A stretch of DNA of 64,000 nucleotides, taken from a virus. Under the pieces are notes generated by a model, which was given only the letters and a program-made list of their open reading frames with translations, made no database searches and was not told where the DNA came from. Positions 43,873 to 63,432 of the stretch are shown here, piece by piece; the stretch's first letter is position 1; every line of letters begins with the position of its first letter. Location of the stretch: IMG/VR virus record IMGVR_UViG_3300033144_003548; one strand, given 5' to 3'. A program made the translations under genes and the position numbers.

Positions 43873-43942
43873 TCAGTCAAGGGTAAGGGTAGGGTAGTAA
43901 TACCCTACCCTACCCACTAAAAAAAACAAAGTGAGGTCAATT

Positions 43943-44086
43943 ATGTGTGAGCATTGTAATTTAGTCAATTGTCCAGTACTCAACAAAGCTGAATGTCCTA
44001 TCAATATCTTGTGGGCTGAGGCAGACAGGATAAGGGCAGAGACTGAGGCGGCAATCAAAGAGGCTGAGGCAATTATCGGCGACTGA
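43943..44086 (+). CDS. 47-aa Cys-rich protein
   Basis: Own translation MCEHCNLVNCPVLNKAECP...; GAGG RBS. Confidence 0.6.
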   Translation: MCEHCNLVNCPVLNKAECPINILWAEADRIRAETEAAIKEAEAIIGD

Positions 44087-44288: not shown

Positions 44289-44431
44289 GGCAAATGAGCC
44301 AGCGTGCCTGAACGCCAATTCTGGCAGATTCGCCAATAGCCTGAACGGCAAATAAGCCTGTATGCCTGAACAATGTGCCTAGAGCCTTGCCTGAACTGCC
44401 GTTGATGGCGAATAAGCCAAAAAGCCTGAAC
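44289..44431. repeat. Interleaved GCCTGAAC (x5) and GGC-N6-GCC (x4) repeats
   Basis: GCCTGAAC at 44306, 44339, 44364, 44389, 44424; palindromes at 44289, 44323, 44347, 44407. Confidence 0.85.
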
Positions 44432-45196: not shown

Positions 45197-45226
45197 CTCG
45201 CTCACTCCTTTCTCTAGACTACCTCT

Positions 45227-45255
45227 ATTATACCATCGCCTTGTGTAAATGTCAA
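45227..45255 (-). promoter_or_regulatory. Early sigma-A promoter, GGC class
   Basis: TTGACATTTACACAAGGCGATGGTATAAT. Confidence 0.88.
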
Positions 45256-45468
45256 GTGTTTTGAGATGCCACGCAAAAATTTTTTCGCAGGCAAATCTGC
45301 CGATCAAGCCAAGCCGAACAGAACTCAGGCAAGTGTGCCAGGGCATAGAACGGGAGCGGTAGGCAACTCGCCCAACGCTCCCTTTGTTTAGTAATTAAAA
45401 ATGCCAATATAGTAACAGTCTTTATTTAATCGGCGGTCTAATCCTCCTTTCCTAGATTTGGCTCGCAG

Positions 45469-45983
45469 TTACTTGACTTTAACTACGATGCCATCCCTCA
45501 CCTCAACCTGAGCATACCACCTGTGAGGCTCAGGGTAATGAGGACCCTCAACGAACTCAGTGCCGTTTTGCTTGGGAGAACCAAGTCCTGGGGAATAGAG
45601 TCTGACCTCTTTCCCACTGGCGACTGCTTCCTTGAGTGCTTTTTTGGTCTTGAAGTTAGTATCAGTATACATTAGCCACCTCCTTCTTAGTGTGTTGGGT
45701 CTGAGCCATCTTCGGGGATACCGTTTACCAGCATAAAGTCCCAATGCTCTTTGAAGACTTTGCTGCCAGCGTTGTGCTTCCGATTGCACTTTTTGCAGAA
45801 GTAAGACTTGATGGTAGCTTTCTTAGCCATCTCCTCAGCAACAGCTTTGTCAACTGCTGCCTGACGCTCTAGGAGCATCTGACGAGTTGGGTGTGCCGCA
45901 TACCAATCTTCCTTCTTCCACAATCGACCATCTCGGAAGATGATGCCCGACTCTGCTCTAGCTCTATCCTTTGCTCGGCTCAT
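45469..45983 (-). CDS. Two hypothetical proteins (45469-45672; 45687-45983)
   Basis: RBS GGAGG; downstream of promoter 46020-46048. Confidence 0.7.
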
Positions 45984-46019
45984 CGGTTTTGCTAACCCCC
46001 TTTCCTCTAGGATACTTCT

Positions 46020-46048
46020 ATTATAGCAACGCCTTTGTTAAAAGTCAA
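46020..46048 (-). promoter_or_regulatory. Early sigma-A promoter, GGC class
   Basis: TTGACTTTTAACAAAGGCGTTGCTATAAT. Confidence 0.8.
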
Positions 46049-46294
46049 GGGGGAAAATGTACGCCAGAAGTTCACGCTCAAAATAAGGGCAAAACTGCCC
46101 TCAAATTGCCGATTAGGCGTCTCAGAACAGGTGGCTATACATTACGCCTAATGGCAAGCCAAACTGCCTCTTCGGCAAATCTGCCAAAAGGCTGAACAGG
46201 CTGCCATAAAGACAGCCTGTTAGCTCGGCGGGTGCGTGGCTAAGAAGTCCGAATCTGCCCTCTTACCATATTTCAGGTTATCAGTTCCGAGCCA

Positions 46295-46712
46295 CTACCA
46301 CTTAATCCACTTATCTTCTGGCTGAGCGTAGATAAGTGCCCTCATCGCTGGTTTATAGCCAGCTTTGAGTCCAGCCTCTCTCAGAACTTCGAGAGCCTCC
46401 GCTTTACCTTCGGCTTTGCGGAGATTGGCTTGTGCTTCTTTGAGATACTGGATGGTTTCCTCTTTATCCATTCTCTCCATTAGATGCCTCCTTCACTTTG
46501 AATAGGGTTACCTTGTTCTGCCCAGTTCTACGAAGGATGTAGTCTTTCTTGTTGCCTTCAAGTTCACATACCACCTCAACAGGGGTAAACGAACCATCCC
46601 GCTTGCCAAGTCCTTCAATAACCATACTATCACCTCCATTATCTAGTATAGCATCGCCTGCGTTTAATGTCAAGTAGGTCTTAGAGGCAAAAGGGATGTC
46701 GGTGCGTGGCAA
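46295..46712 (-). CDS. Two small hypothetical proteins (46295-46480; 46464-~46625)
   Basis: ORF track; hairpin AACAGGCTG/CAGCCTGTT downstream at ~46195-46221. Confidence 0.6.
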
Positions 46713-47129
46713 ATCAGCCTAAATACTCTGCTCTCCCACTGGTTCTGCTGTGGCAGAACTGCCGTCCATTCTGTGCGTGGCATTTAATATCACTTCTTAC
46801 TCTTGGCAAAGGCAAATAAAGAGGTAACAGAACCTACGGCAAACTTGCACGTAACGTGGCAAGGCAAGATTTCCTACATAACACTGGCAACGTTACACAC
46901 AGAGTAACGACACGGCGAAAACTTTGAAAATTTCTCGAACACAAGAGAATTGCCATTCAGATCGTTACGTCTCATGGCTTAATTCTGAGATTGTATCTAA
47001 TGTGGCAGTATTCTACAACACTCTAAGCATTTTATGGGAAAGGGATATTCTATGGCAGATATAGGAGTAACAGTGTTATGTTGTGTATGGCAAGGGTGAA
47101 GAATTTACTCCTTCGCCACGCACAAAAGC

Positions 47130-47158
47130 TTGACATTTCCAGTTGGCGATGATATAAT
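47130..47158 (+). promoter_or_regulatory. Early sigma-A promoter, GGC class
   Basis: TTGACATTTCCAGTTGGCGATGATATAAT. Confidence 0.9.
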
Positions 47159-47214
47159 TATAGTGTAAAGGTCGAGAAACCAAAGCACGAAATCTAAAGA
47201 AAGGAGAAGCCACA

Positions 47215-47751
47215 GTGGGTAAGACTCAAACAGTCGAAATCCAGCCAACGGTTCTCGGTAGGAAAAATGCCGAGTATGCTCGTCTGCGTGAGAAAGGCAT
47301 CGCAGAAGAGCGTGTTGTTGAGCGGATGGCAGAGGATGCAAAAGTCTTCGGCGTGACTCTTGAGGACTATCAGGGTCGTCTGGCTGAAGTTGGTCGAAAG
47401 ACTGGCGATGGTAAGCGGGCAGCTTTGAAAGCCCGAAAGGAAGCGGTGCAGGCGAAGCATCTGGAAGTCTGTTCGTTTCTGAATGAGGTTATCACCACAG
47501 GTCAGACTGACTTAGCCGCTTTCCAAACCTCTCTTAAAGAGTTGGCTGAGAAAGCTGATGGGTGGGTTCTGATGACCGCCTGTGAGAAGGATGGCTCGAC
47601 TGGGGAAGGCTTGTTTACCATCAATGACTCTGGATGGAATGACGGCAGCAACCGTTCAAACCAGTATTCAGACCGCCCTCAGATGGTGGGTAAGTCGGGC
47701 AAGCACGTTCCTCATCCATTCCTTATCAGGGGCATCGAGCAGGGGAGCTAG
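47215..47751 (+). CDS. Hypothetical early protein, paralog of 43165
   Basis: AAGGAG RBS, GTG start; TVLG.K.AEY.RL..KGIAE.R..ERM.EDA..FG.TLE.YQ shared. Confidence 0.85.
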   Translation: MGKTQTVEIQPTVLGRKNAEYARLREKGIAEERVVERMAEDAKVFGVTLEDYQGRLAEVGRKTGDGKRAALKARKEAVQAKHLEVCSFLNEVITTGQTDLAAFQTSLKELAEKADGWVLMTACEKDGSTGEGLFTINDSGWNDGSNRSNQYSDRPQMVGKSGKHVPHPFLIRGIEQGS

Positions 47752-47776
47752 TAAGCTCTACGGCACACAACCAGAG

Positions 47777-47807
47777 GAGAGGGGAGTCGAAAGGCTTCCC
47801 TCTCTTT
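47777..47807 (+). terminator. Rho-independent terminator
   Basis: GAGAGGGGAGTC-GAAA-GGCTTCCCTCTC followed by TTT. Confidence 0.75.
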
Positions 47808-47887
47808 GTGCCCTCTTTCTTCGGGCAAATCTACCAGTTGGGGGTAACAGGGTGCTGGACTTGCTCGCTGTGGCAAACGGGATTAGC

Positions 47888-47916
47888 TTGACATCCTCAG
47901 ATGGCGATGCTATACT
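47888..47916 (+). promoter_or_regulatory. Early sigma-A promoter, GGC class
   Basis: TTGACATCCTCAGATGGCGATGCTATACT. Confidence 0.88.
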
Positions 47917-47951
47917 GGGGATAGTGGGAAATACTGTGAAAGGAGAAAGCG

Positions 47952-48365
47952 ATGGCAAGGAAGAAAAGTCAAGAGCAGGCATATCATTGTGATATGTATT
48001 ACTTTGACAATGTATGCCCCCATCGTGGGAGTCAAGACCCTGCCGACATCCGCTATCGGTCAGGGTGGACTCTCCAGCCACGTTCTCTATGCAAAAACTT
48101 TGGGCTAGACGCAAATGATAGGTTGTGTCGGCATTGTGTAGAGAATAAGAAACTCTTCCCTCCAGCCCTAGTCAAAGTGAGATACTCAGCACCAGCGAGC
48201 CGAGTTATCAGTCGGACTCCATTTCAGGCTAAAAATTCCAAAGCGGAAACTATCAAAGCATATTCCAAGCCAAGACCACTAATTGAGTATCTCAAAAAAC
48301 ATCCTCGTTTATACGGAGTCAATGTCGAGACAGGCGAAATCATCAATGCGAAGGTTGCGGTATAG
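47952..48365 (+). CDS. Cys-rich hypothetical protein
   Basis: AAGGAG RBS after promoter. Confidence 0.7.
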   Translation: MARKKSQEQAYHCDMYYFDNVCPHRGSQDPADIRYRSGWTLQPRSLCKNFGLDANDRLCRHCVENKKLFPPALVKVRYSAPASRVISRTPFQAKNSKAETIKAYSKPRPLIEYLKKHPRLYGVNVETGEIINAKVAV

Positions 48366-48655
48366 TGGCTGAATTATACATTCTTCATTTCAAGAAGCCC
48401 TACTGGAAGAATTGTCAACACTATGTTGGCTACACAAAATTTACCGCAGAAGAGCGGTGTGCCGTTCATCGTGGGGTGATGAAGAATGGTAGCAAGCCTA
48501 GCAAACTTGTTCAGTATGCACTCAATCACGGCAATGACTTTGTTATTGCTCTTGTGGAGCAATTCAATGAGGATTGGGAAGCTCGTCAGGCAGAGCGGAA
48601 AATCAAAAGAAGTGGAGGTGGCAAGCGATTATGTCCAATATGTCAAAACAGATAA
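48365..48655 (+). CDS. GIY-YIG nuclease-like protein
   Basis: LYIL...HYVGYT...R...H...E..IK. Confidence 0.75.
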   Translation: MAELYILHFKKPYWKNCQHYVGYTKFTAEERCAVHRGVMKNGSKPSKLVQYALNHGNDFVIALVEQFNEDWEARQAERKIKRSGGGKRLCPICQNR

Positions 48656-48828
48656 TGGAGAAACTCAAGTTTTGGTGGCATTACAGCATCTTGCGTGAAT
48701 GTATCTTTTGTGGCGAACCTAGCACCACTAGAAGTGTCGGCGTCAGGGTTTGCGACAGATGTGCAAGGCACGTTCAGGAAGGTTGGGATAGCTACGGCAG
48801 GTAGAGAAAAATCTCGTAGGGAGGCATT

Positions 48829-49281
48829 ATGCTGGACGAAAGCAAAATGTCTGAGGCAGAAAGAAAAGCGTATGCTAATAAGCTCGCTATGAGGCAAGAG
48901 GAAGAAAGAGTAAAGCGTGAACGGGCACGACATAATTTATCTTGGAGAATAGCCAGAGAATACGATGTGCTGGTAATCACGAAAGCTGGCGAGACTTGGT
49001 TGGTTGATTGTAAGCGGTCAAACAATGGTGAGTTCATTATAGATGGCTCAGACATTATCAAGTTACTTGACATCGCTAATAACTGGAGAGCAAAGCAACC
49101 TGGCGTAGTAGTTGAAGCTAGGTTTGAGATGTGGTTTAGCCGAACCAGACAAGCAAACAATAGGCGTGATGTGGTGGTTACTGAGGATGATAGAGGCTGG
49201 AGCATAAAATGCACCAAAACTCCAAAGAAAATCACCACACAGAAAGTTAAGCGTGGAAGCCAAGAAGAAAGGGGTGAGTAA
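48829..49281 (+). CDS. PD-(D/E)xK nuclease (Hjc-like)
   Basis: EE, YDVL, LVDCK. Confidence 0.55.
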   Translation: MLDESKMSEAERKAYANKLAMRQEEERVKRERARHNLSWRIAREYDVLVITKAGETWLVDCKRSNNGEFIIDGSDIIKLLDIANNWRAKQPGVVVEARFEMWFSRTRQANNRRDVVVTEDDRGWSIKCTKTPKKITTQKVKRGSQEERGE

Positions 49282-49282
49282 G

Positions 49283-51186
49283 ATGGTAAAAGTCGGGACT
49301 ATCAAAGACTTCAGGCGTGCAGAGAAGATGTTGAGAGATGCTGGCTTTGAGGTAACGGAAGATGGGGGCGATCTTGTAAAGAAAGCATATGTCAACGGAG
49401 TCGAAGCCATCGGTATTGCAAAGTTTCGGGGCAATACTTGGATATTCCGCTATAATCCGAAATTCTTTAGCGAAAGCTAGAAAGGAGAGGCAGATGGGAA
49501 ATATGTTGGTTGATGCGGCACTCAAACAGGTCGAGAGGGATACTGAGAAAGTGCAAGAGGCAATCAGCCATAGCACCACTGAGCATTATCGCAAAGCTGT
49601 GGTGAAGCGGGCAATTGCTTCTGTGGAAGCTCTCAAGGCATCCCTAAAAACTCTATAAGAGAGGTAATTGGCAATGGGTATGATGAAGCGATACTTGATG
49701 GAGAAGATAGCAGAGTTCGCCATCAAAATCGGGGTAACGGAAGAAGCCATCTACAACGATGACTTCCTCTATGAGCGGGCAACTGCTTACGCTCAACTAA
49801 AACTTCAGCAGGAGGGCATAGATGAAACCTTCAGAAAAATCGCCTGAATTGAATTCATTCCTTAATGAGTTCAGCCAGAATGTGTTTGGTCGAAACAGAA
49901 CAGAGGCTATTGAGAATGACGTTTGTGTTGAGTGCGGTGAGTCTGCAAAAGAATTCAAAGATGCACTCAGCCAAAAGGAATACTCAATCTCTGGTCTGTG
50001 CCAAAAATGTCAAGATAAAATATGGGGGTGAGTGATGAGGCTAACTTGTATCAGGGATAAATGTCCAAAGGCAGGTCTGTTCGTAGATTACAGACGTTGC
50101 CTAGAGTGTCATTCCTTTGCTGGACAAGTCGAGTTTGGCACAGTGGACTGTAATCATCCCGAAGCCAAGAAGGGTGGGGGGTATAGTGGAAGTCTCAAAG
50201 ACATATTCCCTACCCTCTGCCGACAAACTTATTAAAAGGAGAGGTTAAATGGGTGGCAATATAAGATTACATCCAGAGCACGGGCTTAATCCGACAATCT
50301 CACAGTGTATCATCTGCGGTGGTGATAAAAATGAAATCGCACTACTTGGTGCGGCATACAAAGGGCACGCACCGATGAAGATGGTAACCAGCCTCGAACC
50401 TTGTGATGCCTGCAAAGAGAAATATCTCAAAGAAGGGATAATGCTTGCAGAGGCAGATGGAAAACGAGTTCCTACTGGTAGTGTAGCAGTTATCACCGAA
50501 GAGGCGTTTACAAGGATATTCAAGGATACTCCCATTCCGCCACGTAGGATTGCGATGGTGGAGCAGGGAATGTTAGCGATGCTTGGCATCAACTAACAGC
50601 TTGACAATCGCTGATGGCGATGATAGAATTAAGACAGTGGAGCAAACACTGGAAAGGAGTTGGCAAGTGAATAAGAAAGAGTTACCAGTTGAGCTGCCAG
50701 AAAAGTGTCCTCATTGTGGGGCAGAGACAGAAGATGGTATCTATGTCTGTATGTCTTGCGATGAGCAACTTATTCGTGGCGAGCTTTGCAACGGGTGTGG
50801 TGGAGTAATCTGTGTCGGCGAACCAGCTTATGCTCTTCAATCTGGCTACATAGACGATGATGGAGAGTTCGTGAGGGTTGATAGCCAATCACAGATATTC
50901 CACACTGGTCAGTGCCTGAATTCGGAAGAATGAAAGGAGATGGCAAATGGTTGGAGATAAAGAGATAGTTAGTGGGCGTTATTACAACGCAAATGGGAGT
51001 GCTGTTGCCATTATTGCTGTGGTAACAGAAGGAATAGACTGGGCAGCATATATTGGTGGTACTCAACCTGATATTCCAATGGAAGAAACCCAAAAGTGGG
51101 TGGCAAAATATGGTTGCAAACTATCTGAAGCGGATGCTCGGCATTACTTCGGAGAAGATGTAACCTCGCTGCCTTACAGACCATAG
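49283..51186 (+). CDS. Run of eight small early hypothetical proteins, several with Zn ribbons
   Basis: 49283-49480, 49493-49658, 49674-49847, 49822-50031, 50035-50235, 50249-50596, ~50667-50933, 50947-51186; RBSs and tight packing. Confidence 0.6.
50601..50629 (+). promoter_or_regulatory. Early sigma-A promoter, GGC class
   Basis: TTGACAATCGCTGATGGCGATGATAGAAT. Confidence 0.85.
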
Positions 51187-51194
51187 AAAGGTAG

Positions 51195-52553
51195 GTGATT
51201 AAAATGGCAGACAAAAGGACTCTCACTGTTGAGAGTAACTACTGCAAAGACTGGACAGTAACCGATGCCGTAAGAGAACTAATCCAAAATGCTCTCGATA
51301 CTGGCACAAAGGTTGAGATTGTCCAGATGGGTAACCTGTGGGAGATAAAGGACTATGGGGCAGGAATTAACCTCTCCGACTTCCTTATCGGGCGGAGTTC
51401 AAAGCGTGATGATACTGATTTGATTGGGCAGTTTGGTGAGGGTGCTCCTATTGGTTGCCTAGTGCTTGCAAGAGCGGGGCGAGACGTTAAGATATATTCC
51501 AAAGGAAAACGTTTCGCCTTTTCTTTTGAGCACGATAGTCAGTGGGGTTGCCCTCTGCTTACCATTACAATTGATGAGGTGGCTACGGATGATGGGACAA
51601 GTGTAAGGGTAGAGTGCAGTGCCGAGGAAATGGATAAGGTTAGAGGACAATTCCTCAAGTTAACACCCCAACCAGTCTTGGCACGAGGAAAGCATACTGA
51701 CATCTTATCCCCTGCGGGGTCAATTTATGTTAATGGTCTCTGCGTGAGCCACGTTAATTCTCTATTTGGATACAATTTCAAAGGGCGGAAAGATTTAGTT
51801 AATCGGGATAGAAATGCCATCGGTCATTCTCAAATTGTGTCAGCAATCCAAGATACGATGGCGCACATCACCAATCCCGATTTAATGCGTGAAGTCCTGT
51901 TAGCAGGTGCACGTGATGAGCCAAAAGGAGCAATTGAGTTTACTCAAGAGTTCTCCACATCATACCCCTACAAGTGGAAGGCAGCAATCAAAGATATTTG
52001 GGGAGATAAAGTCTGCCTTGCTGATAATTCAGCGTATGACCAACTGGCTACCGAGAATAATTGGAAAGTCCTGTCATTGCCTTGGGGTCTCAAATGGACT
52101 CTGCGACACATTCTACCAAATTCAAAGGATGTTTTCAATAAAGGCAAGAAAAAGCAGTATATCCTGCAAAAAGACCTTACTCCAGACGATAAAGAAATCT
52201 TAAAAGAGGGCAAAGAAATTGCGGGTTGGCTCGCAAAAGAAGTCGGGTTAGAGACGTTTCCTATAAAAATATTCAGAGACTTACAAAGACAAGAAGGCAC
52301 AAAGCAATTCACTACTCACGGTCAATTTGTGGGCGGGACTGTCGAGCTTGAAATTGAATTACTAAAGCGTCAAGACATAACCAAGCTTGTCGGCACTACT
52401 CTCCACGAATATACTCACGGGACAACGGGCAGTCCAGACACTACGAGGGACTTTGAAAATCACCTCACCGACTTAATTGCTACTCTTGGCATTAAGTGCT
52501 ATATGCAGGCTAAGAAAATTGAGGAGTTGGAGAAGTGCAGAATACAGATTTAG
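51195..52553 (+). CDS. GHKL (HATPase) ATPase with C-terminal HExxH zincin-like motif
   Basis: RELIQNALD, DYGAG, IGQFGEG, GT; LHEYTH. Confidence 0.8.
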   Translation: MIKMADKRTLTVESNYCKDWTVTDAVRELIQNALDTGTKVEIVQMGNLWEIKDYGAGINLSDFLIGRSSKRDDTDLIGQFGEGAPIGCLVLARAGRDVKIYSKGKRFAFSFEHDSQWGCPLLTITIDEVATDDGTSVRVECSAEEMDKVRGQFLKLTPQPVLARGKHTDILSPAGSIYVNGLCVSHVNSLFGYNFKGRKDLVNRDRNAIGHSQIVSAIQDTMAHITNPDLMREVLLAGARDEPKGAIEFTQEFSTSYPYKWKAAIKDIWGDKVCLADNSAYDQLATENNWKVLSLPWGLKWTLRHILPNSKDVFNKGKKKQYILQKDLTPDDKEILKEGKEIAGWLAKEVGLETFPIKIFRDLQRQEGTKQFTTHGQFVGGTVELEIELLKRQDITKLVGTTLHEYTHGTTGSPDTTRDFENHLTDLIATLGIKCYMQAKKIEELEKCRIQI

Positions 52554-52828
52554 CAGGCAGCTTCGTAGGGTTAAGTTCTCTGGATGCCGTGCTCACTAAG
52601 GTAGTAGTGGGCAATGGTGGGTATGAGCTAAATCCAGTAGTTCGGCGTATTCTTGAACAACCTGAGTGGGTGTTTTGGGCATTCAAAATTGGTGGAGCGA
52701 TTGTTTGTGCCTTAGTCCTGCTTCTACTTGCACGAAGATTTCCTCGCCAGATTAAAAATATACTTATTCTTTTAACAGTAATAATGCTAGGAGTTTGCCT
52801 ATTCAATCTAATAGGTGTAGTGATATAA
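52535..52828 (+). CDS. Membrane protein (DUF5658-like)
   Basis: LDAVLT...ELNP...K with three hydrophobic helices. Confidence 0.6.
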   Translation: MQNTDLAGSFVGLSSLDAVLTKVVVGNGGYELNPVVRRILEQPEWVFWAFKIGGAIVCALVLLLLARRFPRQIKNILILLTVIMLGVCLFNLIGVVI

Positions 52829-52840
52829 AAGGAGAAAAGA

Positions 52841-53762: not shown

Positions 53763-53763
53763 C

Positions 53764-53792
53764 TTGACATTTGCGGGAGGCGGTGATATACT
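53764..53792 (+). promoter_or_regulatory. Early sigma-A promoter, GGC class
   Basis: TTGACATTTGCGGGAGGCGGTGATATACT. Confidence 0.85.
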
Positions 53793-53798
53793 TATACT

Positions 53799-55132
53799 AT
53801 GAGCAAGTCTAAAATGCGGAAATATGAGGTCGGCAAGTCAAGACCCACCGAAAATCGAGCAAGTAATGCCATTTCTAATGAGGTAGCGGATAGGTGGGTC
53901 GCCAAAATTGATGAAGCATCAAAGGTCGAGGGCATACATTCTCAGATAGAAGCGGTAGCACAAGTGCTGATAGAATTGGCAGAGGAAATCAAAGCAGGTC
54001 GGGTGGACATAGACGTTTTCAAGGTGGTGCTCAGGCGAAGAAATGTTACTGCTTCTCTCCAGATTGCTTACAACAAACTAAGGTATATGCCGATTTTTCA
54101 GAATGGATAAAGTAAAGGCACATCGCACCCACGTTCCAGCAAAGTCTTATCGGCACAGACCGAAAGGGACAGCAAGGCAGGTGCGGCAGATTGCCAAAAG
54201 GTTAGGTGTCAAGTATGTTGCTTAAAGATGGTGGGCACGGGGTAACTGAGGAAAGTCTAAAATTCTGGCACGCAAATAAGAGTAAGCTCGGTCTAATTCT
54301 TGGATTGGAAGCTACCTTTGAACCTCTTGGCGTTGACCAAGATGATTCGGGGGTGCTGGAGTATAATTGCCGTATTTATGGTTATAACGGTGAGATATTA
54401 CTATCAGGGTGTAACTGTGGATACGGTGGCACTGGACCGAATGGAACAGCGAAGATACTGGCAGAACTTGGAGTTCCTATTGAGAGTGCTAGGACAGCGT
54501 GCTGGCACAAGGAAGTAAAGTGGGATGTGCTGGCTAATAAATTAACTGCTGATGGTGAGGAATTGACTTTTCCATTAGCAAAGCAAAGACGAAAGGAGTG
54601 GGCGGAATTTATTGACAGACATAATATTCCTCAGTGCCGTGCTGAGGGATTATGTAAAACCTGCACCACAACAAATGAATGCCCTGATTTTGAGGGCAAA
54701 TAAAGTATGGAGTAAAAAATGTATAGAAGCAAAATTAAAGCAGTAGTAGTGGTGGATGAGGCAAACAACTGGTTAGCTTATAATCTTGGGCATAATGTTC
54801 GTGATGCTTTGAGATTAGCTAAACAGGCAACTGAGTATGAGAAGGATACCACTATGATTGCCTATAAGGTGGTGGAAGAAGTAGAAGTTAAGCCAAACGA
54901 AAAATTCTGAGGAGCAAATACAATGACGCAGGTTAATCAATTACGGAAGGCAATCAAAGAGAAATTCCCCGATTTGAAATTCAAAGTACGAACCATAGAC
55001 TTCGCAGACTTGGCAAGGGATAGCAAAGTATTTGTGGAGTCTGATGCGTGGGGAATGACAAAGGGTAACGGCGAACTTTATCACCAAGTAGAGGAAATTG
55101 CCAAAAAGTTTGGTGCGGTTGTCTCTTGGTGA
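53799..55132 (+). CDS. Hypothetical proteins (53799-54110 leaderless, 54206-54703, 54719-54910, 54923-55132)
   Basis: ORF track. Confidence 0.65.
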
Positions 55133-55177
55133 GAGAGAAAAAATTAGTATGAGGCTAAGCCTCAGAAGGAGAGTAAA

Positions 55178-55975
55178 ATGTTTTCAATGGAAGATTATCT
55201 AGTGGAGACAGAGAAGTATCGGGGGCACAAGATTAAAATCTATCAAGACATTGACCCACCTAATCCGAGAGAGTGGGAAGAAAATCTTGGCAAGATGGTG
55301 TGTTTTCACAGGCGGTATGATTTGGGTGATAAACACGACTTTTCTGATGCCAGAGACTTAATCAGCTTTGTGGAGAGTAAGGACATTGTGTCCTTGCCTC
55401 TGTTCCTGATTGACCATTCTGGACTGGCAATGAATACTGGTGGGTTTAGGCATTGTGACCCTCAAGGATGGGATTGGGGGCAGGTCGGATTTATCTATGC
55501 TGACAAAGACGCTCTACGAAACGAGTATGGCGTTAAGCACGTTACAAAGAAAGTCCGAGAAAAAGCCTTAGCGGTTCTGCAAAGCGAGGTCGAACAGTAT
55601 GATAAGTTTCTGCGTGGCTGGATTTATGGTTACTTGATTGAGGATGCCGATGGGGAGCAATTAGACTCCTGTTGGGGCTATTTTGATGACCCTGCTGACA
55701 TTATCAAGGAGTGTAAAGCAATCATAGACCGCCATATTCAGGCAGAGAATGAGAAGAAGCACTACCCAAAGGTTGAGGTATTTGTTACCAAGACACACAA
55801 ATTTAGGGCACGTATTAGGGAGAGCATAGAAGAGCCTTCCTATGAAGTGAGTATTGGTGGTGAGGAGTGGAGTAAAGGGAAAGGGAAAAATCACAAAGCC
55901 AAAATCCTAGAGAAGATGGATGAAATTGGCAAAGCTTTAGGGCAAGAGTTTGCTCGTGCCATTCACGAAAAGTAA
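55178..55975 (+). CDS. Conserved phage hypothetical protein
   Basis: NPREW..NLG, DHSG, WD.GQVG, DSCWG motifs recognised from phage early regions. Confidence 0.7.
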   Translation: MFSMEDYLVETEKYRGHKIKIYQDIDPPNPREWEENLGKMVCFHRRYDLGDKHDFSDARDLISFVESKDIVSLPLFLIDHSGLAMNTGGFRHCDPQGWDWGQVGFIYADKDALRNEYGVKHVTKKVREKALAVLQSEVEQYDKFLRGWIYGYLIEDADGEQLDSCWGYFDDPADIIKECKAIIDRHIQAENEKKHYPKVEVFVTKTHKFRARIRESIEEPSYEVSIGGEEWSKGKGKNHKAKILEKMDEIGKALGQEFARAIHEK

Positions 55976-56183
55976 ATGAGGTGGCAATGGAATATCGGGT
56001 AGCTGAGTTTCAGCGACTATTTGAAAGCGTTCACCGCCACAAGTCGCAGGGTGATGTCCTTGCCTATAACTCTCTGCGTAAAGAGATGGAGCAAGACGGA
56101 TATAAAATCGAACAGGCGTGGGGATGGTATCTCCATTGTCCTGATGGCACAACAATTACACTTGACTACTGGAATGAACTACC

Positions 56184-56212
56184 TTGACAAATTGTGCTGG
56201 CGATGTTATACT
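56184..56212 (+). promoter_or_regulatory. Early sigma-A promoter, GGC class
   Basis: TTGACAAATTGTGCTGGCGATGTTATACT. Confidence 0.88.
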
Positions 56213-56231
56213 AATAGAATAGGAGAGGTTA

Positions 56232-57666
56232 ATGGACTTTGCGAGAATACAGGCAGAAAAAATGACATATGAGGGCAAATTAGTAGAGTGTGTTCGCTGC
56301 CATAAATCACCGTTTCTCGTAATAACGGTATTAGGAACAGTGGTTTATTTATGCCCCAACTGTCTCTACTTTGAAGAGCCCTGGGAAAGAGGGGATTAAA
56401 TGAAATCGGCAATTGTAGACTCAAAAAGTTTAGGCACAAACTGTTGGTCGCTAAAGAGATTTTGTGGCGGGAGATGTGATAAAGTTATGACCTGCAATTA
56501 CCCCGAAAAGCACACCTGCGAGGCGGTCAAATCTGAAATTCTCTACTTGGAGAACAGGCGAGAGGAACTCGTAGCGGAGTTCGGGAAAAGGCTTGAACAG
56601 CTTCAAGATAAAATTTCAGAGGGCATCAGAAAGCTGAGGGGTGAAGAATGAAATTTCAATTCAGGTGCATTGGCTGTAGCACAATCTTTGAACAAGACAT
56701 CGAGGGGGAGGCAGTGGAAACCTTTCTTGATGCTTTTGAAGCTGGTGGTTGTGAGATAATGCAAGGCTGTTGTCCAAAGTGTAGAGAAACTAAGAATGGT
56801 CTTGCCATCAATGAGTTACTTGAGGCATTACCGAGTGGAAAAAGAGTATAAGTTCTACGATGGTACAATCTTTTGGAAATATCCTTGTCCGAGATGTATT
56901 GGCGGGAGTCTTACTTGGGTGAGGGAAAGAGGCTTTGAACCATCGTTACACTGTATAAATTGTGGCTATGACCACCAACAGCAAAAAAACTTTGAAAAGT
57001 TTGAACGGAAATGGCTTAAAAAGGCAAGAAATCAGCTTCGGAAGCAGAAAAAACGGCAAGAGAAAGGGGTCAAAAAAGACTAATTTCTGGCGTATTTTTT
57101 CACATTTCCCACGCTCAAAACCTTAATTAGAGGCAATTAAATGCAATTTAGTGAAATGGCTATTGAGGAAGCGGAAGCAAAAAAGAAGATGCTTGAATGC
57201 CAGTGGGGAAAGCATAATGAGAAGCTTGGCATCGAGTGGATAGAAAAAACTCCAGAGTGTCAAAAGTGTAAAAATCGCTTTCAATGCCTCACTATGTCAG
57301 CAAAGCGTTTCAAGCTAACTGTGACTCAAACAATCTGGACTACTTATGAGGTGTTCGCCGAAAATGAGGATGAGGTAATGGAACTATTTGCCTCATTCGG
57401 AACTGACGAACCTCTTATGCGTGAATTAAAAAGTGATGGGGATGGCGGAGATGTGGAGATAGAGGAGTGGAGTGATAGTGTATAAATGTATCCACACAAT
57501 CTCTTGTCCTAGCAGGCTGTGGTGTGGTAAATGCACAAGTCCTGCCGAATGTCGCTTCGCATTACCCATCGTGGCAGAGGATGGGATGGTCAAAAATTGC
57601 GAAATGTGTATGACAAAATTTACTTGCTGGACTGAGCGAGAGCCAGAGAGAGCAATTATCTTATGA
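56232..57666 (+). CDS. Run of small Cys-rich proteins (56232-56399, 56400-56651, 56648-56851, 56796-57083, 57141-57485, 57472-57666)
   Basis: ORF track plus own translation of 56232; CxxC pairs. Confidence 0.65.
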
Positions 57667-58580
57667 AAACTTGGATGAATAAATTAGACCCTCTTTACGA
57701 GGGGTTGCCATTTATGGAAATTGAGGGTGAGATGATTTCTTACCCCTGTGTGGCAGAAGTGAAGCTGGATGGTGAGTTTCAATATATTATTAAGCGGAAT
57801 GGTATTGTCTATCTCGCTAACAAACGAGAGCACGGCAGAATAAGGACTGATATGCCTGTGACCAATATTGACATTCCCGACAACTCCGTTTTTCTCGGTG
57901 AGTTAGTGTGGGGAGCAGGCAAAGATTTCTATGATTTTGCGAGACATAAACTTGACCCTGACTGTAATCTTGGCATCTATGGTTGTATCAAATATGCTGG
58001 TAAGCAATTGTGGGGAAAGGCAACATATACCGAGACAAGACAATTGCTTGAGAGTCTGAAATTCTATACTGATAAAGTAGTGCTAGTCCCTGCCGTTGAG
58101 ATACACGATACTCAAGAATTAGAAGATTTCTTCAAACAAGTGGTAGCTAGTGGGTATGAGGGGCTGGTAATCAAACAGCTAGACTCTAAATACATAAATG
58201 GAAAGAGTTATCATTGGGCAAAAAAGAAGTTCCAAACTGAAGCAGATTTGGTTATCTGTGGTTATCAAACTGGAACTAAGAGGGCAAAGAATTTAACGGT
58301 TCTGGTCGGACATTTGGTGGATGGGGAAATCAAACCACTTACTCACGTTGGTGGCGGTTTTAAGTATGAAGAAAAAATGGAATTGCTTAGTGCTTTGCAA
58401 GGATGCCCATCCATTGGCAAGCTAAAGGATGACGTTCTTGTTGAACCTAAAATCGTAATTAAGGTAATTTACAATGGAGTAATATACAATCCTGATGGGA
58501 GCATTAACTCATTAAGGCATCCAAGATTTGATAGATTTCGCTTTGATAAAGCCGTGAAGGAGATAGATACAATAAAATGA
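57663..58580 (+). CDS. ATP-dependent DNA ligase
   Basis: EVKLDG, FLGE, YEGLVIK, W.KKK, OB domain, LRHPRF. Confidence 0.92.
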   Translation: MKTWMNKLDPLYEGLPFMEIEGEMISYPCVAEVKLDGEFQYIIKRNGIVYLANKREHGRIRTDMPVTNIDIPDNSVFLGELVWGAGKDFYDFARHKLDPDCNLGIYGCIKYAGKQLWGKATYTETRQLLESLKFYTDKVVLVPAVEIHDTQELEDFFKQVVASGYEGLVIKQLDSKYINGKSYHWAKKKFQTEADLVICGYQTGTKRAKNLTVLVGHLVDGEIKPLTHVGGGFKYEEKMELLSALQGCPSIGKLKDDVLVEPKIVIKVIYNGVIYNPDGSINSLRHPRFDRFRFDKAVKEIDTIK

Positions 58581-58891
58581 ATTATGATGAAATAAATGAC
58601 AAAGACCTCGAAAAAGCCGTAAGGCGAGCTTTCGAGCTTGAGGAAGGCAAGACGGTGGTGATCAACTTCAAAGATTGCCCTGTGAGAGTTGACTATCGCT
58701 GTATGGATAAGGATACCGATATTTGTGACGGGTGCAGGCTGAGATTTACCTGTTACTCTAGTCAATATCTTACTCTTGAGCCAAAGGACTTGCGATTTCC
58801 TCAAGACCTGAAAGAGACAATCAATGAGCGGGTCGAGGCATACGTAGAAAGCTTCAAACCTGCAAAGAAGGCTGAACAAAAAACCGCCTAG
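58577..58891 (+). CDS. Cys-rich protein (CxxCxxRFxCY)
   Basis: CDGCRLRFTCYS. Confidence 0.65.
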   Translation: MNYDEINDKDLEKAVRRAFELEEGKTVVINFKDCPVRVDYRCMDKDTDICDGCRLRFTCYSSQYLTLEPKDLRFPQDLKETINERVEAYVESFKPAKKAEQKTA

Positions 58892-58901
58892 ATGGACGAC
58901 C

Positions 58902-58930
58902 TTGACTTTTTTGCTTGGCGATGCTAAACT
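58902..58930 (+). promoter_or_regulatory. Early sigma-A promoter, GGC class
   Basis: TTGACTTTTTTGCTTGGCGATGCTAAACT. Confidence 0.75.
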
Positions 58931-58939
58931 ATATAGATA

Positions 58940-59656
58940 ATGAGATACCATTGTAATCGGTGCAATAAAGATTTTACCACGCTGTCAGAGGATAAAGGCA
59001 AAAAGTTTGCGTTCTCTCACTTTATCCTTGACAAAATGCGGTGTCCCCATTGTGGGGCAACTAATCAATCGCACATTCCACGCAGACCACTCAAGACAAC
59101 GAGACATAGGTATCAGCCAAAGCGGAGAAGTATGGATACCGATGATTATTCTCCACCAAGTATAGTATTACATCCAATCTGCCAAAAGAGGATAGTCGGT
59201 AATCCGATGTCAATTGAGGGTATGCAGGTAATGTGCGAAGGTTGCCCTTCCGCTTTTAATTGTCTTGCTGGTAATGTGGATGATGGGACTCTTACTGAGA
59301 ATGTCATAGACCAGCAAGAGGCTAGGGAGAGGGAGAAAGCCAAAGCAGTAGAAGAGGCGAAAGCGAAAGCTGCCGAGAATAAAAAGAGGGATGAACAGCT
59401 TTATCTTAAAAAGCTACGGGATACTCTTGGCAGTTGGGGTTTCGGTTATGTGTTTCAAAATGGTTTGTGCTACGCAAGGTTTGGTGGCACGGTCTGGAAA
59501 CTGGATGCTGAGGATATAAAAGCAATAATGGAGCAGACTTGGCACACACCCAAAACTACTGTCATAAAGAATACGCTTGATAAGCGACAAATCAAACCAG
59601 CGATGGCACAGAAGCTTCTCCAGTGGGAGAATTACTGCGGTAATTTAAGGGCTTGA
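58940..59656 (+). CDS. Zn-ribbon/Cys-rich hypothetical protein
   Basis: CNRC..CPHC and CEGCPSAFNC. Confidence 0.7.
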   Translation: MRYHCNRCNKDFTTLSEDKGKKFAFSHFILDKMRCPHCGATNQSHIPRRPLKTTRHRYQPKRRSMDTDDYSPPSIVLHPICQKRIVGNPMSIEGMQVMCEGCPSAFNCLAGNVDDGTLTENVIDQQEAREREKAKAVEEAKAKAAENKKRDEQLYLKKLRDTLGSWGFGYVFQNGLCYARFGGTVWKLDAEDIKAIMEQTWHTPKTTVIKNTLDKRQIKPAMAQKLLQWENYCGNLRA

Positions 59657-59681
59657 CAAAATGCTAAGGCTATGCTATAAT
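59653..59681 (+). promoter_or_regulatory. Early sigma-A promoter, GGC class
   Basis: TTGACAAAATGCTAAGGCTATGCTATAAT. Confidence 0.88.
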
Positions 59682-59689
59682 TATAGAAG

Positions 59690-60128
59690 ATGGAGAAATG
59701 TTTAATCTGTGGAGAGCGAGATGCCGATTTCGAGGGGGTTATCTGCTATGAGTGTAAGCAAAAAGCAGATGAGCAACTCATTGCCGAAGAGCGTGAGTTC
59801 TTTGAGAGAGAGGGAAACAATCCCGATGGTCTGCCAGCAGAATGACTATTGGATAAAATGTAGTTGCGGATGGGAAGGGTTTGAATGGCAGATGAAGCGT
59901 GGGTATGCTCCGCTCTTTCCTGATGATGTAGTTCCAATGCTTAAATGCCCTGAGTGCGGGAGACAAGAGGATATGTGTGATTGGAAAGAAATTGGTAAGT
60001 GTCCGCACTGTGGCAGGAGATTGGAGCACTTTAGCGGGCTTGAACAGATACCTGAATACTTTTATTGTCCAGTCTGTAACGATACCGCTTATGGTTATGA
60101 CGGCAAAGAGTTGTTTAAGCTGGTATGA
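59690..60128 (+). CDS. Two Zn-ribbon proteins (59690-59845; ~59826-60128)
   Basis: Own translation MEKCLICGERD...CYEC; second has multiple CxxC. Confidence 0.6.
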
Positions 60129-60155
60129 TACCAAAATCCAAAATGGAGGTTCAAA

Positions 60156-60911
60156 ATGGCGGATAGACCTATCTTCAAGGGTGCTATTTCGTTGGGTTCG
60201 TTCCTTATCCCAATGAGAATAGTGAAAGCCACAAAGGAGCACGATGTCAAATTCCACGAATATCACGCAACGGATTTGGGTCGGGTTGGCAGGTCAAAAC
60301 CTTGTAAGTCCTGCGGCAACATTCTGACCGAAGCAGACATCATCAAGGGTGTGGAAATTACCAAAGGCAACGTGATTTCCTTTACCAAAGAGGAACTGGA
60401 AAATCTCCCCATCAAGTCGGCTAAGACAATCGAGATAGACCGCTTCGTTAAAGCTGACGAACTCAGTCCTTTGATGATGGAAGATGCCTACTACGTTCTT
60501 CCAGAGGAAATCGGGGTCAAGGCATTTGAACTTTTTGTCAAGGGTCTGAAAAAGCAACGCAAGGTTGCTATCGGTAAAATCGTTATGAGGCAACGAGAGC
60601 ACATCTGTGCTATGCAGCCGATGGGTAGCGGACTTCTGCTTAATACGGTCTATTATGCAGATGAAATCAGGGATATGCCTCAAGTACCAAAGGCTCAGGT
60701 GGTAGATGATGAGGTAGAGCTTATCTGTCAAGTTATCAACAAATACACCAAGCCATTTGAGCACGGAGCATACACCGATGAATACACAGATGCGGTGCAA
60801 GCTCTGATTGATGCCAAGCTAAAGGGAGAGACACCTCCAGTAGCACCAACGGCTCAAGCTAAGGAAGCACCTAATCTGAAAGACGCCCTGACAGACCTAC
60901 TTAATAAATAA
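60156..60911 (+). CDS. ku: Ku DNA end-binding protein
   Basis: R.I.KGAIS.G...IP, DIIKG.E, IEIDRFV, YYV.P, VAIGKIVMRQRE, DE.R, D.Y, L.DAL. Confidence 0.92.
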   Translation: MADRPIFKGAISLGSFLIPMRIVKATKEHDVKFHEYHATDLGRVGRSKPCKSCGNILTEADIIKGVEITKGNVISFTKEELENLPIKSAKTIEIDRFVKADELSPLMMEDAYYVLPEEIGVKAFELFVKGLKKQRKVAIGKIVMRQREHICAMQPMGSGLLLNTVYYADEIRDMPQVPKAQVVDDEVELICQVINKYTKPFEHGAYTDEYTDAVQALIDAKLKGETPPVAPTAQAKEAPNLKDALTDLLNK

Positions 60912-61015
60912 GGGAGTTGCGGAGCAGGATGGCTAAGAATAAGGTCGGTAAGTATTAGTAATAATTTATCGGACACCTTGCTTGACCATCCTGCCCGACT
61001 CGGTAAGGAGTAATA

Positions 61016-63398
61016 ATGAAGGCTAAAACTTTGCTAAAGGGACTAGCACCACTGGTTGTATTGGGTGGAGCGATAGCACTCTCGGCACTTATCTTTATGG
61101 TACTGTGGAACGCTTTTCTTGTGCCTGCGGTTGGAGTTGCGGTTCTGTCCTTCTGGCTAGCGGTAAAGGGGTGGGCTTTTGTCTATTTCGTTACTGCTAT
61201 GGTGCTAGGGGCAAAGCAATTTGTGGACTTTTTACTATTTAATCTGACTATCCACGTTGCGAGAAGGCAGGCAGAAAAGGAAATGAGTGCTCACACCGAC
61301 CTGATGAAGCATTTCAGTATGTTTGGAGGGCAGGGCGAACAGAATGAACAGAATTAAGAATATTTACTACTCGGTATTTAACTTCTTTTGTCGCCCGAAC
61401 CTGTCGGGTCGGGTGCGTCTTGCTATCCTGAACGACCCGAACATCCAATTTGCCTTTATGATGTGCATAATGAGGGCATTAAATGTATGATGAAGATTTT
61501 AGCCTTTGTTTGAGTTGTGGATTTTGTGATGTGTGTGCCGAATTATCAGGTGGAGAACCTGTGGCATACGAATGTGACGCATACTCACCAAGAGAGGAAC
61601 AATGGGTAAACGTGGCAGACCACCAGGAACGGTCAAGACCAAAATCCCCACAGCCGTCATAAATGAGTGGGCTACCGTCTATAATGAGGGTGGAGATACT
61701 GGTAAGGCACTTGTTCTCGATAGAATTGATAGCTTAGGATTAGAGAAAGATGTAATCCTTGAGCGGATGTCTGTTGCCTACTACAAGAAACGTAGTCCAG
61801 AGTTGGCTAAGATAGTTGAAGCTGAAGTCGGTCAATTACTACATAATGTTAATGAGTTAATTCACAGCAATAAGGACTTTAAGAGACTATCAGAAATCTT
61901 GCCTCGTGATAACTTGATAATAAATCTAGAGACACTGGAAATCCAGAGAGTGAAGCGACCAGTGCCTCGGACAAAGGTAAAGAATGACAATAGAAGAAAT
62001 ACCAAAAATAAGCGATAGCCAAGTAATCCAGCAGAATAAGGATATGAGGCAGAGGATTTCTAGTGGGACTATCACTCAGTGGTTAGACGAGCAGTTACGT
62101 TCTCTTGCCAATTCTAATCCAATTCTGTATAAGTATATTATGGAACACAGCCAAAAATTTGCGATGGGTGCTATGATGGTGCAAGACCCACAATCTATAG
62201 CTATGTCACTTGCCCTTGAGCAAACGCTATTATTGACGTTGATTGGGGCAGCTTACAAAGGGAATAAAAATTTACAAGATTTTACTAATCTGATGAAGGA
62301 TTGGTTTGGCAACGGTGAAATTAAAGGTCTGGATGATTTAGGTGAGAAGAAATAATTACTGGAATTTGAGGCAGCGTAGATATACTTTTGTTCCTGTACC
62401 CGACTTTCCAGAGGAAGAAAAGAAGAAAAACCTTGCCAAGTTCGTAAAGAAACATCCAAGAGCGATGGAAATGCTTGAGGAAATTAAAGAGAGAATTCCC
62501 TGGCAACGACAATTCGTTGGTAGTTTACTTGTTCAGGTGGAGCAAAAAGGCGAATTATCACCGAAGCAGAGAAGCCTGATTACATCACTCTATGCTGATT
62601 GCTGTATCAAATCTGATGCAGATATTCGGGAACAAGTAGAGTGCAGAAAGTTATGCTTGAGGCTATTGGAAACTGAGTTGGGTAGAATGAGAGACTTCGT
62701 TCAAAGCGTGGCTAATTTCACTTATAACCGACCTTTCTCTCCGTTGCAGATGAGAAGCATTAGAAATATGGCAGAGAGGAAGAGGAAAGATTTAGAGCAT
62801 ATTCCAGACTTTAATGAGAAGAATTTTGATGGCTGGAATTTTGCTAGATGGTCTGAGGGAGACAATGTGGACAAGGTTGAAGAATAATATAGCAATCGTT
62901 CCGAAAGCATATGATGTGCGGGCAAATAATGTCTTGGTCTTAGAGACTAATAAACTCTACTTCTTTGTTCCTCTACAAGACCTTGAAGGCAGTCCTGTTG
63001 GCGACTACTGCGGTTCATCAGCTTTTACTGAGGATTATCATCCTCTAGCTGCCTTTGAAGCATATAAGGATACTGACAATAAGTATCACCAATTTATGAT
63101 TGTGGATGGTGAGAGGCGAGACGAGTGGTTGTGCTGTATCTGCAAACATAGATTTATGGGACTTACAGGTGGGTGCAAGTGGAAGCTAATTATGGATAAT
63201 GCTGATGAAAGACCCTGCTCGCCAGAGTTTGATAGGAAACCCGACCCACCTGTTTTGCAGGTAAAGGGTGGGATTTATGTGCCACCGAAATATTTCAATG
63301 CTAATTTCAGACGTTATTATCGGGATAGGGCTTTAGGTGATTATGATTTTAACGTTGATGTAGTGGATATGGTATTGAAGGTTCAGTCGCCAAAATGA
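61016..63398 (+). CDS. Hypothetical proteins (61016-61357 membrane; 61602-62018; 61984-62355; 62342-62887; ~62865-63398)
   Basis: ORF track, overlapping operon. Confidence 0.65.
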
Positions 63399-63403
63399 AA
63401 AAC

Positions 63404-63432
63404 TTGACAAATCAAGTAGGCTATGTTATAAT
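63404..63432 (+). promoter_or_regulatory. Early sigma-A promoter, GGC class
   Basis: TTGACAAATCAAGTAGGCTATGTTATAAT. Confidence 0.88.

Follow-up and report, generated by a model that had tools for sequence, protein, structure and literature searches.

Known spacer elements and phage regulators

The CII site of phage lambda is a TTGC-N6-TTGC sequence that flanks the -35 box, the operators of P22 Arc and Mnt lie between the -35 and -10 boxes, and the Ogr proteins of P2 are zinc-finger activators. The Omega repressor of plasmid pSM19035 acts on arrays of 7-bp heptads in either orientation, and the T4-type phages carry early-promoter cassettes of the promoter-stem-loop type (PeSL). In phage Mu, the Mor dimer is located at -43.5 (PMC4390567). 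Inside the promoter spacer, positions -22 to -18 form the Z-element, which is read by the beta-prime zipper and matters for the polymerases of Bacillus subtilis, E. coli and Thermus; its sequences (AACCT/AACAT) follow a loose consensus (Yuzenkova et al., 2011, PMC3173786). Additionally, residue R451 of sigma-70 senses spacer position -18, an effect that amounts to a preference in conformation at a single base (Singh et al., 2011, PMC3130263).

The present analysis concerns an uncultivated phage with a genome of 138,618 bp (~139 kb), of which a stretch of 64,000 nucleotides (the window, to which all coordinates refer unless stated) contains a set of predicted early promoters with a GGC triplet in the spacer. 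Like the Z-element, this triplet lies at -22 to -18 alongside the -35 and extended -10 boxes; unlike it, the GGC is invariant, belongs to one promoter class only and changes register between phages. The C of the GGC in this phage stands at -18 on the non-template strand, the contact position of the sigma 2-3 linker, but the phage element is a three-base word, and its C is found at -19 or -20 in relatives. The CII, Arc/Mnt, Ogr and Mor systems also employ short repeated words at fixed distances from the promoter boxes to control one temporal class read by the host polymerase and its main sigma factor; they differ in that the phage has no homologues of these proteins and in that its word has three bases, stands single in the spacer and is entirely missing from one accompanying gene. 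The arrangement resembles that of Omega in its short unit, which is repeated, directly or inverted and in varying numbers, ahead of several promoters and recurs in a non-coding array elsewhere. On the other hand, no ribbon-helix-helix protein was detected in the phage, and its 3-bp cores are spaced ~9 bp apart (in pairs) or ~30 bp apart (-19, -49, -78, -113). As in the PeSL cassettes, gene boundaries carry many near-identical early promoters, some of which overlap the end of the preceding ORF, but no conserved stem-loop was found before the GGC promoters, and conservation is confined to the boxes and the GGC instead of covering a whole cassette.

A GGC triplet in the spacer of one promoter class

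The pattern TTGACW-N9-GGC-NN-TG-N-TANANT has 11 exact matches in the window, all within 45227-63432, as compared with no match in 100 dinucleotide-preserving shuffles, and a search of the whole 138,618-bp genome returned these same 11 and no others. The core GGCNNTGNTANNNT occurs 13 times genome-wide and is preceded by a perfect TTGACW at the right distance in 11 of them. The initial annotation had described ten promoters with GGC at a fixed spot; this is confirmed as an undercount, the promoter at 46645-46673 on the minus strand having been missed. The predicted promoters and the genes that they would drive are as follows:

45227..45255, minus strand: GGCGATG; leftward 135-aa and 73-aa genes
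46020..46048, minus strand: GGCGTTG; p98 (45983-45687) and a 67-aa gene
46645..46673, minus strand: GGCGATG; 53-aa and 61-aa genes
47130..47158, plus strand: spacer GGC; first rightward promoter, p178 (47215-47751)
47888..47916, plus strand: spacer GGC
50601..50629, plus strand: spacer GGC; -10 box TAGAAT
53764..53792, plus strand: GGCGGTG; ATG 6 nt past the -10 box, mRNA probably leaderless
56184..56212, plus strand: spacer GGC; stop codon of the upstream ORF inside the -35 hexamer
58902..58930, plus strand: spacer GGC; TTGACT and TAAACT
59653..59681, plus strand: GGCTATG; upstream of the Ku gene operon
63404..63432, plus strand: GGCTATG

All 11 possess the sigma-A/sigma-70 extended -10 features (TTGACW, 17-bp spacer, TG and TANANT), and a start codon follows each at ~6-60 nt, mostly with a GGAG-type site; a leaderless start is predicted at three. 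The element reads GGCGATG in seven promoters, GGCTATG in two, and GGCGGTG and GGCGTTG in one each. Across this phage and its relatives the GGC is followed by G/T or A/T/C, and AAC is absent. The GGC itself is invariant and the nine spacer bases adjoining it vary. A variant twelfth promoter is located outside the window at genome positions 96987-97015 on the plus strand, with the GGC one base farther upstream (N8-GGC-N3-TG).

A relaxed scan of the genome recovered ~23 other strong sigma-A-type promoters, none of which has GGC at -20 to -18. Among them are the four promoters that had been described as lacking the triplet (42928, 18717, 38364 and 42642), a description that the scan bears out:

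42614..42642, minus strand: second-class promoter, GGGC-TTGACAATTA...TATG-N-TATAAT, without spacer GGC
38336-38364 and 18689-18717, minus strand: further second-class copies, without spacer GGC
42928, plus strand: promoter with an 18-bp spacer, without GGC, inside a GGC-free unit

Conservation in related phages

The relatives are uncultivated phages with the same gene order, whose proteins are ~45-55% identical. Six orthologous promoter sets keep the top-strand spacer GGC in these relatives as the remaining spacer varies, and across nine related records the GGC was found at N7-N9 in 54 of 111 strict promoters, compared with an estimated ~4 by chance. GCC was never found at this position, which indicates that the orientation of the spacer GGC is fixed (top strand). 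Each phage keeps to its own register, which varies from one phage to the next: N9 (-20 to -18) in this phage and its closest relative (L254), N8 (-21 to -19) in G002, G006, L252 and L253, and N8 together with N7 (-22 to -20) in G001.

These comparisons indicate that the spacer GGC is under selection and is an element specific to the phage clade, not a part of general sigma-A recognition. The earlier view that the GGC is phage-specific and stands outside the sigma-A consensus is thus supported both by the equally good promoters without GGC in the same genomes and by the orthologous promoters that retain it. That the triplet is functionless and common by descent, the promoters being copies of one ancestral cassette, is barely credible: three leftward promoters do share 79% identity across 34 nt and the second promoter class of this genome resembles a repeated cassette, but the nine neighboring spacer bases are unconserved where GGC is invariant, and orthologous promoters hold GGC at ~50% protein divergence.

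Paired sites and a transcription unit without GGC

The triplet also occurs in the inverted arrangement GGC-N6-GCC, of which 10 of the 12 genome copies are located in the divergent early control region (44289-46763):

44289..44418: array of four sites (44289, 44323, 44347, 44407), non-coding
45290-45301 and 45328-45339: two sites, centers at about -75.5 and -113.5 from promoter 45227 (minus strand)
46088-46099 and 46174-46185: two sites upstream of promoter 46020 (minus strand), centers at about -80.5 and -166.5
46708-46719 and 46752-46763: two sites upstream of promoter 46645 (minus strand), centers at about -75.5 and -119.5

In the non-coding array, GCCTGAAC repeats are interleaved with the paired sites with a period of 58-60 nt, and the 46708-46763 pair is located in a 450-bp intergenic region rich in GGCA. 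The same clustering is seen in relatives, the control region holding 9 of 13 copies in G001 and 11 of 15 in G006, and 7, 11 and 13 copies in L252, L253 and L254, respectively. Control-region promoters with upstream paired sites number 16, and in 10 of these one site is centered at -71 to -83. Most early promoters at a distance from the control region lack a paired site in their vicinity. Of 47 promoters with a spacer GGC, 34 have a G[GC]C ~50 bp ahead of the start site, starting 14-16 nt 5' of the -35 box and falling in differing reading frames of the upstream ORFs.

The spacer element of G001 (GGCATATG) equals one half of its own paired site (GGCAAATATGCC). Single and paired sites have matching flanks in G001 (GGCATA in both), partly matching ones in G002 (GGCT) and poorly matching ones in this phage (GGCGAT versus GGCAAAT); as the flanks differ here (GGCGATG versus GGCAAAT..GCC), the half-site link rests mainly on the triplet itself. 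The GGC had been proposed to be a modified base or an operator half-site: the latter gains from the clustering of paired sites in the control regions of this phage and its relatives, and the former finds no support in the gene content.

The initial annotation had also matched the GGC promoters to a GGC desert, and this relation holds. The features concerned are:

42884..44014, plus strand: transcription unit free of GGC and GCC, with promoter 42928, the 235-aa gene (43165-43872) and, beyond it, the first part of a small ORF
43165..43872, plus strand: p235, an orphan, 52-84% identical across 17 metagenomic homologues
47215..47751, plus strand: p178, likewise an orphan, paralogous to p235 at 33% identity and encoded directly after GGC promoter 47130

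At 1130 bp this is the longest GGC/GCC-free gap in the genome, the next longest being 686 bp. The desert is shared by eight relatives, where 163 triplets would be expected and 0 are present; it extends ~45-130 bp upstream of the promoter of the unit in five of six cases examined, and the purged unit measures 1.1-1.7 kb. GC, GG and CCG are present at normal frequencies in these units, so the depletion is specific to GGC/GCC. p235 is always encoded in GGC-free DNA, and no recognizable fold was found for either p235 or p178. The maintenance of the triplet, the paired-site clusters and the GGC-less gene in relatives makes the GGC look like a phage-specific control signal.

Possible readers of the triplet

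We favor, with a probability of roughly 45%, a phage-encoded DNA-binding factor that reads GGC and docks on the spacer triplet at the Z-element position (-22 to -18). The GGC, a cis-regulatory word under selection, would set apart the early regulon of the phage clade, and the same factor would also recognize the clustered GGC-N6-GCC pairs of the divergent early control region as well as the G[GC]C located ~50 bp before the start. In the spacer, the factor would occupy the place at which the DNA is contacted by the beta-prime zipper and the sigma domain 2-3 linker, adjoining the TG and -10 boxes. We infer that a protein reads the triplet, and both sign and timing of its effect are put forward on the same terms: the factor could silence or activate all of the early promoters at once and leave the second promoter class unaffected. 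The unit of the 235-aa gene, which has no GGC on either strand, is proposed to be exempt from this control.

The candidate reader is the following gene:

45687..45983, minus strand: p98, putative GGC reader

p98 combines a basic N-terminus and a long helix with a C-terminal C-x2-C-x3-H-x9-H beta-beta-alpha module; no significant fold match was found for this zinc-finger-like module, nor any recognized DNA-binding family or fold among the proteins of the region. All four full genomes retain p98, whose conservation is highest (83%) where the paired sites resemble each other most. The p98 of L252 is 90% identical to that of this phage and yet L252 has the N8 register, which indicates that the p98 sequence does not track register.

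Besides the differing flanks, the distant promoters that lack paired sites and these results on p98, a point against the docking factor is the total purge of a bare 3-bp word over 1.1-1.7 kb, which is more readily explained by an enzyme that acts on each site than by a classical repressor. It is conceivable, if somewhat unlikely, that GGC is a genome-wide trinucleotide address of the clade, with a phage activity that hits every GGC on either strand and from which p235, being GGC-free, escapes. Such an activity might be that of a protein that coats or silences DNA, or of an enzyme that marks or nicks it; the activity would be placed at early promoters by the spacer GGC and nucleated at the GGC-N6-GCC arrays, and p235 would be either the activity itself or its antidote.

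Direct reading of the GGC by RNA polymerase, as a host-specific Z-element or -18 contact that tunes the strength or opening kinetics of early promoters with no phage factor involved, appears unlikely. The triplet is always inside -22 to -18, which comprises the Z-element window and the R451 contact at -18, and its top-strand orientation is fixed; moreover, 6 of the 11 GGC promoters depart from TATAAT against ~3 of 15 in the other class, as expected if GGC compensates a weaker -10 box. Nevertheless, equally good consensus promoters exist without the triplet, so GGC is unnecessary for recognition, and the 1-2 bp shift of register between close phages and within G001 is awkward for a rigid contact. 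In addition, the known Z-elements read AACCT and AACAT, not GGC, and the paired sites, the -50 triplet and the GGC-free gene are left unexplained.

We also consider it improbable that sequence-specific DNA modification or nicking is directed at GGC, the state of the mark at -20 (for instance in incoming versus replicated DNA) setting early promoter activity and the GGC-free unit being the one gene that is always read unmarked. The removal of GGC/GCC from the whole unit, including promoter-upstream DNA, in eight relatives suggests that a single site matters, as with every-site enzymes. Genes for a divergent ThyA-family protein and for a glycosyltransferase are present, and a conserved early 96-aa protein has a weak match to GIY-YIG nucleases (E 0.0015, below the family cut-off). 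However, no DpdA/TGT and no C5, N4 or N6 methyltransferase was found in the genome (PF01702, PF00145 and PF01555 are absent), a ThyA-type pathway would alter every C or T and not only those of GGC, and the GGC-N6-GCC pairs clustered at fixed promoter distances resemble protein-binding sites rather than enzyme targets.

Implications

Promoter spacers are usually deemed sequence-neutral, and here a three-base word is invariant at the Z-element position in one promoter class. This word is kept across a clade of large uncultivated phages at only ~50% protein identity and is tied to two further signals, the clustered paired sites and a gene fully purged of it, which makes the GGC system a clean and testable case of a control element embedded in the spacer. 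The GGC-free gene is a pointer to the protein worth testing first. If the trinucleotide-address explanation were true, it would represent a previously undescribed logic of temporal control. The spacer GGC and the signals tied to it may also offer a way into the question of how a large phage without a sigma factor of its own separates its gene classes under the main sigma factor of the host.

Promoters with a GGC triplet in the spacer

All 11 genome copies of the exact pattern TTGACW-N9-GGC-NN-TG-N-TANANT lie in the window, and 100 shuffles produced none. The initial annotation had listed ten such promoters, all of which carry the pattern, but the count fell short by one, at 46645-46673(-). Of 13 genome copies of the word GGCNNTGNTANNNT, 11 are correctly spaced from a perfect -35 box; the nine spacer bases that precede GGC are not conserved. 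One more promoter, outside the window (genome 96987), carries the GGC shifted one base upstream. The proposal that the triplet is confined to one promoter class, predicted to be early, agrees with a relaxed scan in which none of about 23 further strong promoters showed GGC at -20 to -18. Many of these belong to a second class on the left arm, GGGC-TTGACAATT...TATG-N-TATAAT.

Additional features surround these promoters. A C lies immediately 5' of TTGACA at nearly every strong promoter genome-wide, the second class reads GGGC-TTGACA-ATTA (for example window 42614-42642(-) and 38336-38364(-), and genome 7734-8301(-)), and GGC-TTGAC is found at most promoters, in either class, of the full relative G002. 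At three GGC promoters (53764-53801, 58902-58942 and 59653-59692) an ATG lies only 6-9 nt past the -10 box without a ribosome-binding site, and judging from this spacing their mRNAs are probably leaderless. A further G[GC]C triplet begins 14-16 nt before the -35 box in 34 of 47 GGC promoters from four genomes, at about -51 to -47 relative to the start site. It falls within the 3'-terminal part of the preceding ORF, in varying reading frame, and in a few cases is the GCCA end of a tRNA gene; its interpretation as the end of a hairpin was rejected since no consistent structure upstream of the promoters ends there.

A scan of the whole collection with TTGACW-N9-GGCGATG-N-TATAMT returned 120 loci (L001-L120; 24 distinct 29-mers), nearly all of which represent a single homologous stretch of coding sequence in a widespread, unrelated phage family. 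They were rejected as promoter evidence because the pattern there belongs to conserved coding sequence and misleads pattern scans. In a small sample of 23 other strong promoters from these loci, GGC was absent from N7-N9 (7-9 bases after the -35 box).

Genome context

The virus record is complete at 138,618 bp and has direct terminal repeats; the window covers its bases 25924-89923. Among the products of the window are a tape-measure protein, a large terminase, a ribonucleotide reductase, Ku and an ATP-dependent ligase. Leftward genes begin at about window 42,900 and rightward genes at 47,130, and the divergent control region between them has a higher G+C content. The features concerned are:

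23575-24720(-), group-1 glycosyltransferase gene
42884-44014, GGC/GCC-free stretch
43165-43872(+), gene for p235 (235 aa)
44280-44450, non-coding array flanked by the ends of the p235 unit and of a leftward early operon
45687-45983(-), gene for p98 (98 aa), first behind promoter 46020
47215-47751(+), gene for p178 (178 aa), first behind promoter 47130
48365-48655(+), gene for a 96-aa early protein
57663-58580(+), ATP-dependent DNA ligase
60156-60911(+), Ku homologue

The ligase and Ku genes both lie in the early region of GGC promoters, and the two resemble an end-joining pair. No close relative was found among deposited phages by a near-identity DNA search of a phage database, and protein searches gave remote matches only. 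The best match of the ribonucleotide reductase (73% identity) is on L172, a 7.7-kb sediment contig binned as Woesearchaeota (archaeon) and probably a mis-binned fragment of a related phage; the remaining matches are about 50% identical and scattered over many phyla. Assigning a host from this enzyme was rejected on both grounds.

Conservation among relatives

Relatives were found by terminase and early-gene searches in viral contigs (45-55% protein identity, conserved gene order), namely three full relatives, G001 (133,760 bp), G002 (134,397 bp) and G006 (152,753 bp); five shorter contigs (L252 to L256) were added through look-ups of p98 and p235 homologues. All of them are metagenomic contigs.

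Table. Spacer register (bases between the -35 box and GGC), paired sites (GGC-N6-GCC) and longest GGC/GCC-free stretch in the relatives and, for paired sites, in this phage (G000)
G000: 10 of 12 genome copies of the paired site at 44289-46763
G001: N8 7-10 times (strict or relaxed scan), N7 4 times; 9 of 13 paired sites in the control region; 43128-44410
G002: TTGACW-N8-GGC-N3-TG 15-16 times; only 2 paired sites; 108537-109381
G006: N8 5 times; 11 of 15 paired sites in the control region
L252: N8 5 times, N7 once; 7 paired sites; 8686-10324
L253: N8 2-3 times (strict or relaxed scan); 11 paired sites; 3270-4481
L254: N9 5 times, as GGCGATG, identical to G000; 13 paired sites; 9559-11043
L255: 9395-10992
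L256: 9382-11126

A top-strand spacer GGC is present in one promoter class of all relatives, and the N9 pattern is shared by the closest one alone (L254). GGC is retained at six promoters whose orthology follows from what lies downstream (the 238-aa gene, the Ku operon, the 387-aa gene, the 452-aa gene, the 137-aa gene and p98), with two exceptions, one in G002 and one in G006. Among the 111 strict promoters of nine records, 54 have GGC at N7-N9, against an estimate of about 4 by chance, and GCC was never seen at this position. Taken together, this retention, enrichment, absence of GCC and distribution of registers indicate that the triplet is selected and orientation-specific, with a register that is uniform within a phage and variable between phages.

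Paired sites and the GGC-free unit

Paired sites cluster in the control region, and in this phage they take the form GGCAAAT-NW-GCC; a perfect GGCAATATTGCC site was found in L252. Sixteen control-region promoters have paired sites upstream; in ten, a site centre falls from -71 to -83, frequently accompanied by a second site near -107 to -120. Together with the -49 and -19 triplets these place GGC units about every 30 bp. The array at 44280-44450 contains three 34-nt repeats with a period of 58-60 nt, each comprising a GGC(A/G)AAT-N2-GCC site and a GCCTGAAC word, and a similar array with six sites lies at 11345-11627 of L254. The array may act as an origin, a partition-like site or a nucleation centre. 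In G006, four control-region promoters (130477-133330) have GC replacing TG, preceded directly by (A/T)(T/C)GCC, for example TTGACA-N11-GCC-GC-T-TATAAT; this arrangement overlaps a GG(T/C)AATT-N-GCC site, which puts the paired site within the spacer itself.

GGC density in the early arm is about what its higher G+C predicts, so that the term GGC-saturated applies only to the control region (about 42 per kb), which is, with the GGC-free unit, the only outlier. The GGC desert mentioned by the initial annotation was borne out: the stretch without GGC or GCC is, at 1130 bp, the longest in the genome, and it includes the 235-aa gene with its promoter 42928 and about 140 nt past the gene. The homologous unit is also the longest such stretch in seven relatives (844-1744 bp). 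Summed over the eight units, 0 GGC/GCC were observed vs. 163 expected, with GC, GG/CC, CCG and GCG at near-normal frequencies. In five of six cases examined the stretch starts 45-130 bp upstream of the -35 box, and thus includes untranscribed DNA.

Candidate proteins and DNA modification

The p235 and p178 proteins are paralogues. For p235, 17 homologues share 52-84% identity, and in its model (pLDDT 72) the N-terminal part consists of five helices; the C-terminal part is highly conserved but poorly modelled. The p98 protein is present in all four full genomes (identities 83, 40 and 36%), and its family conserves an N-terminal DRxRAESG..R.G motif, an AHPT motif and C-x2-C-x3-H-x9-H; its predicted structure (pLDDT 75) comprises a long helix plus a C-terminal beta-beta-alpha unit. 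The protein may be considered a candidate for the connection with GGC. The p98 of L252 is 90% identical to that of this phage, yet the L252 register is N8. Neither predicted structure had a significant PDB match, and a protein atlas gave weak leads only. The 96-aa early protein is shared by all four full relatives (46-48% identity) and weakly matches a GIY-YIG nuclease domain at E 0.0015, below the family cut-off. Among the proteins examined none has a demonstrated DNA-binding fold.

Searches of the genome gave no Sigma70_r4 domain, no DpdA/TGT and no C5, N4 or N6 methyltransferase. A divergent 215-aa ThyA-family protein (genome 20079-20312(-); L257 1495-2142), matched over the family's C-terminal third only, together with the glycosyltransferase, would be compatible with pyrimidine hypermodification of the DNA.

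Reading of the triplet

Our preferred reading, tentative at a probability of about 45%, is that the triplet is recognized by a phage-encoded DNA-binding factor. Direct reading by the polymerase is rather unlikely. The spacer GGC does fall inside the Z-element window at -22 to -18 that is read by the beta-prime zipper (PMC3173786), and the C of the triplet occupies -18 in this phage, the position at which R451 of sigma-70 touches the non-template strand (PMC3130263); however, the same genomes also contain consensus promoters that lack the triplet, the register differs between close relatives and the same triplet occurs in clustered pairs at fixed distances, all of which favor a phage-specific reader over the polymerase alone. 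A mark or nick at every GGC, to which we give a similarly low chance, would account for the complete removal of GGC from the p235 unit. Since a classical repressor does not explain this removal well, the mark or nick stays under consideration, as does a broader reading, also in line with the purge, in which the trinucleotide is a genome-wide address from which one gene is exempt. A functionless triplet shared by descent is very improbable. The preferred phage-encoded factor would dock on the spacer GGC and would govern the early class together, as one set.
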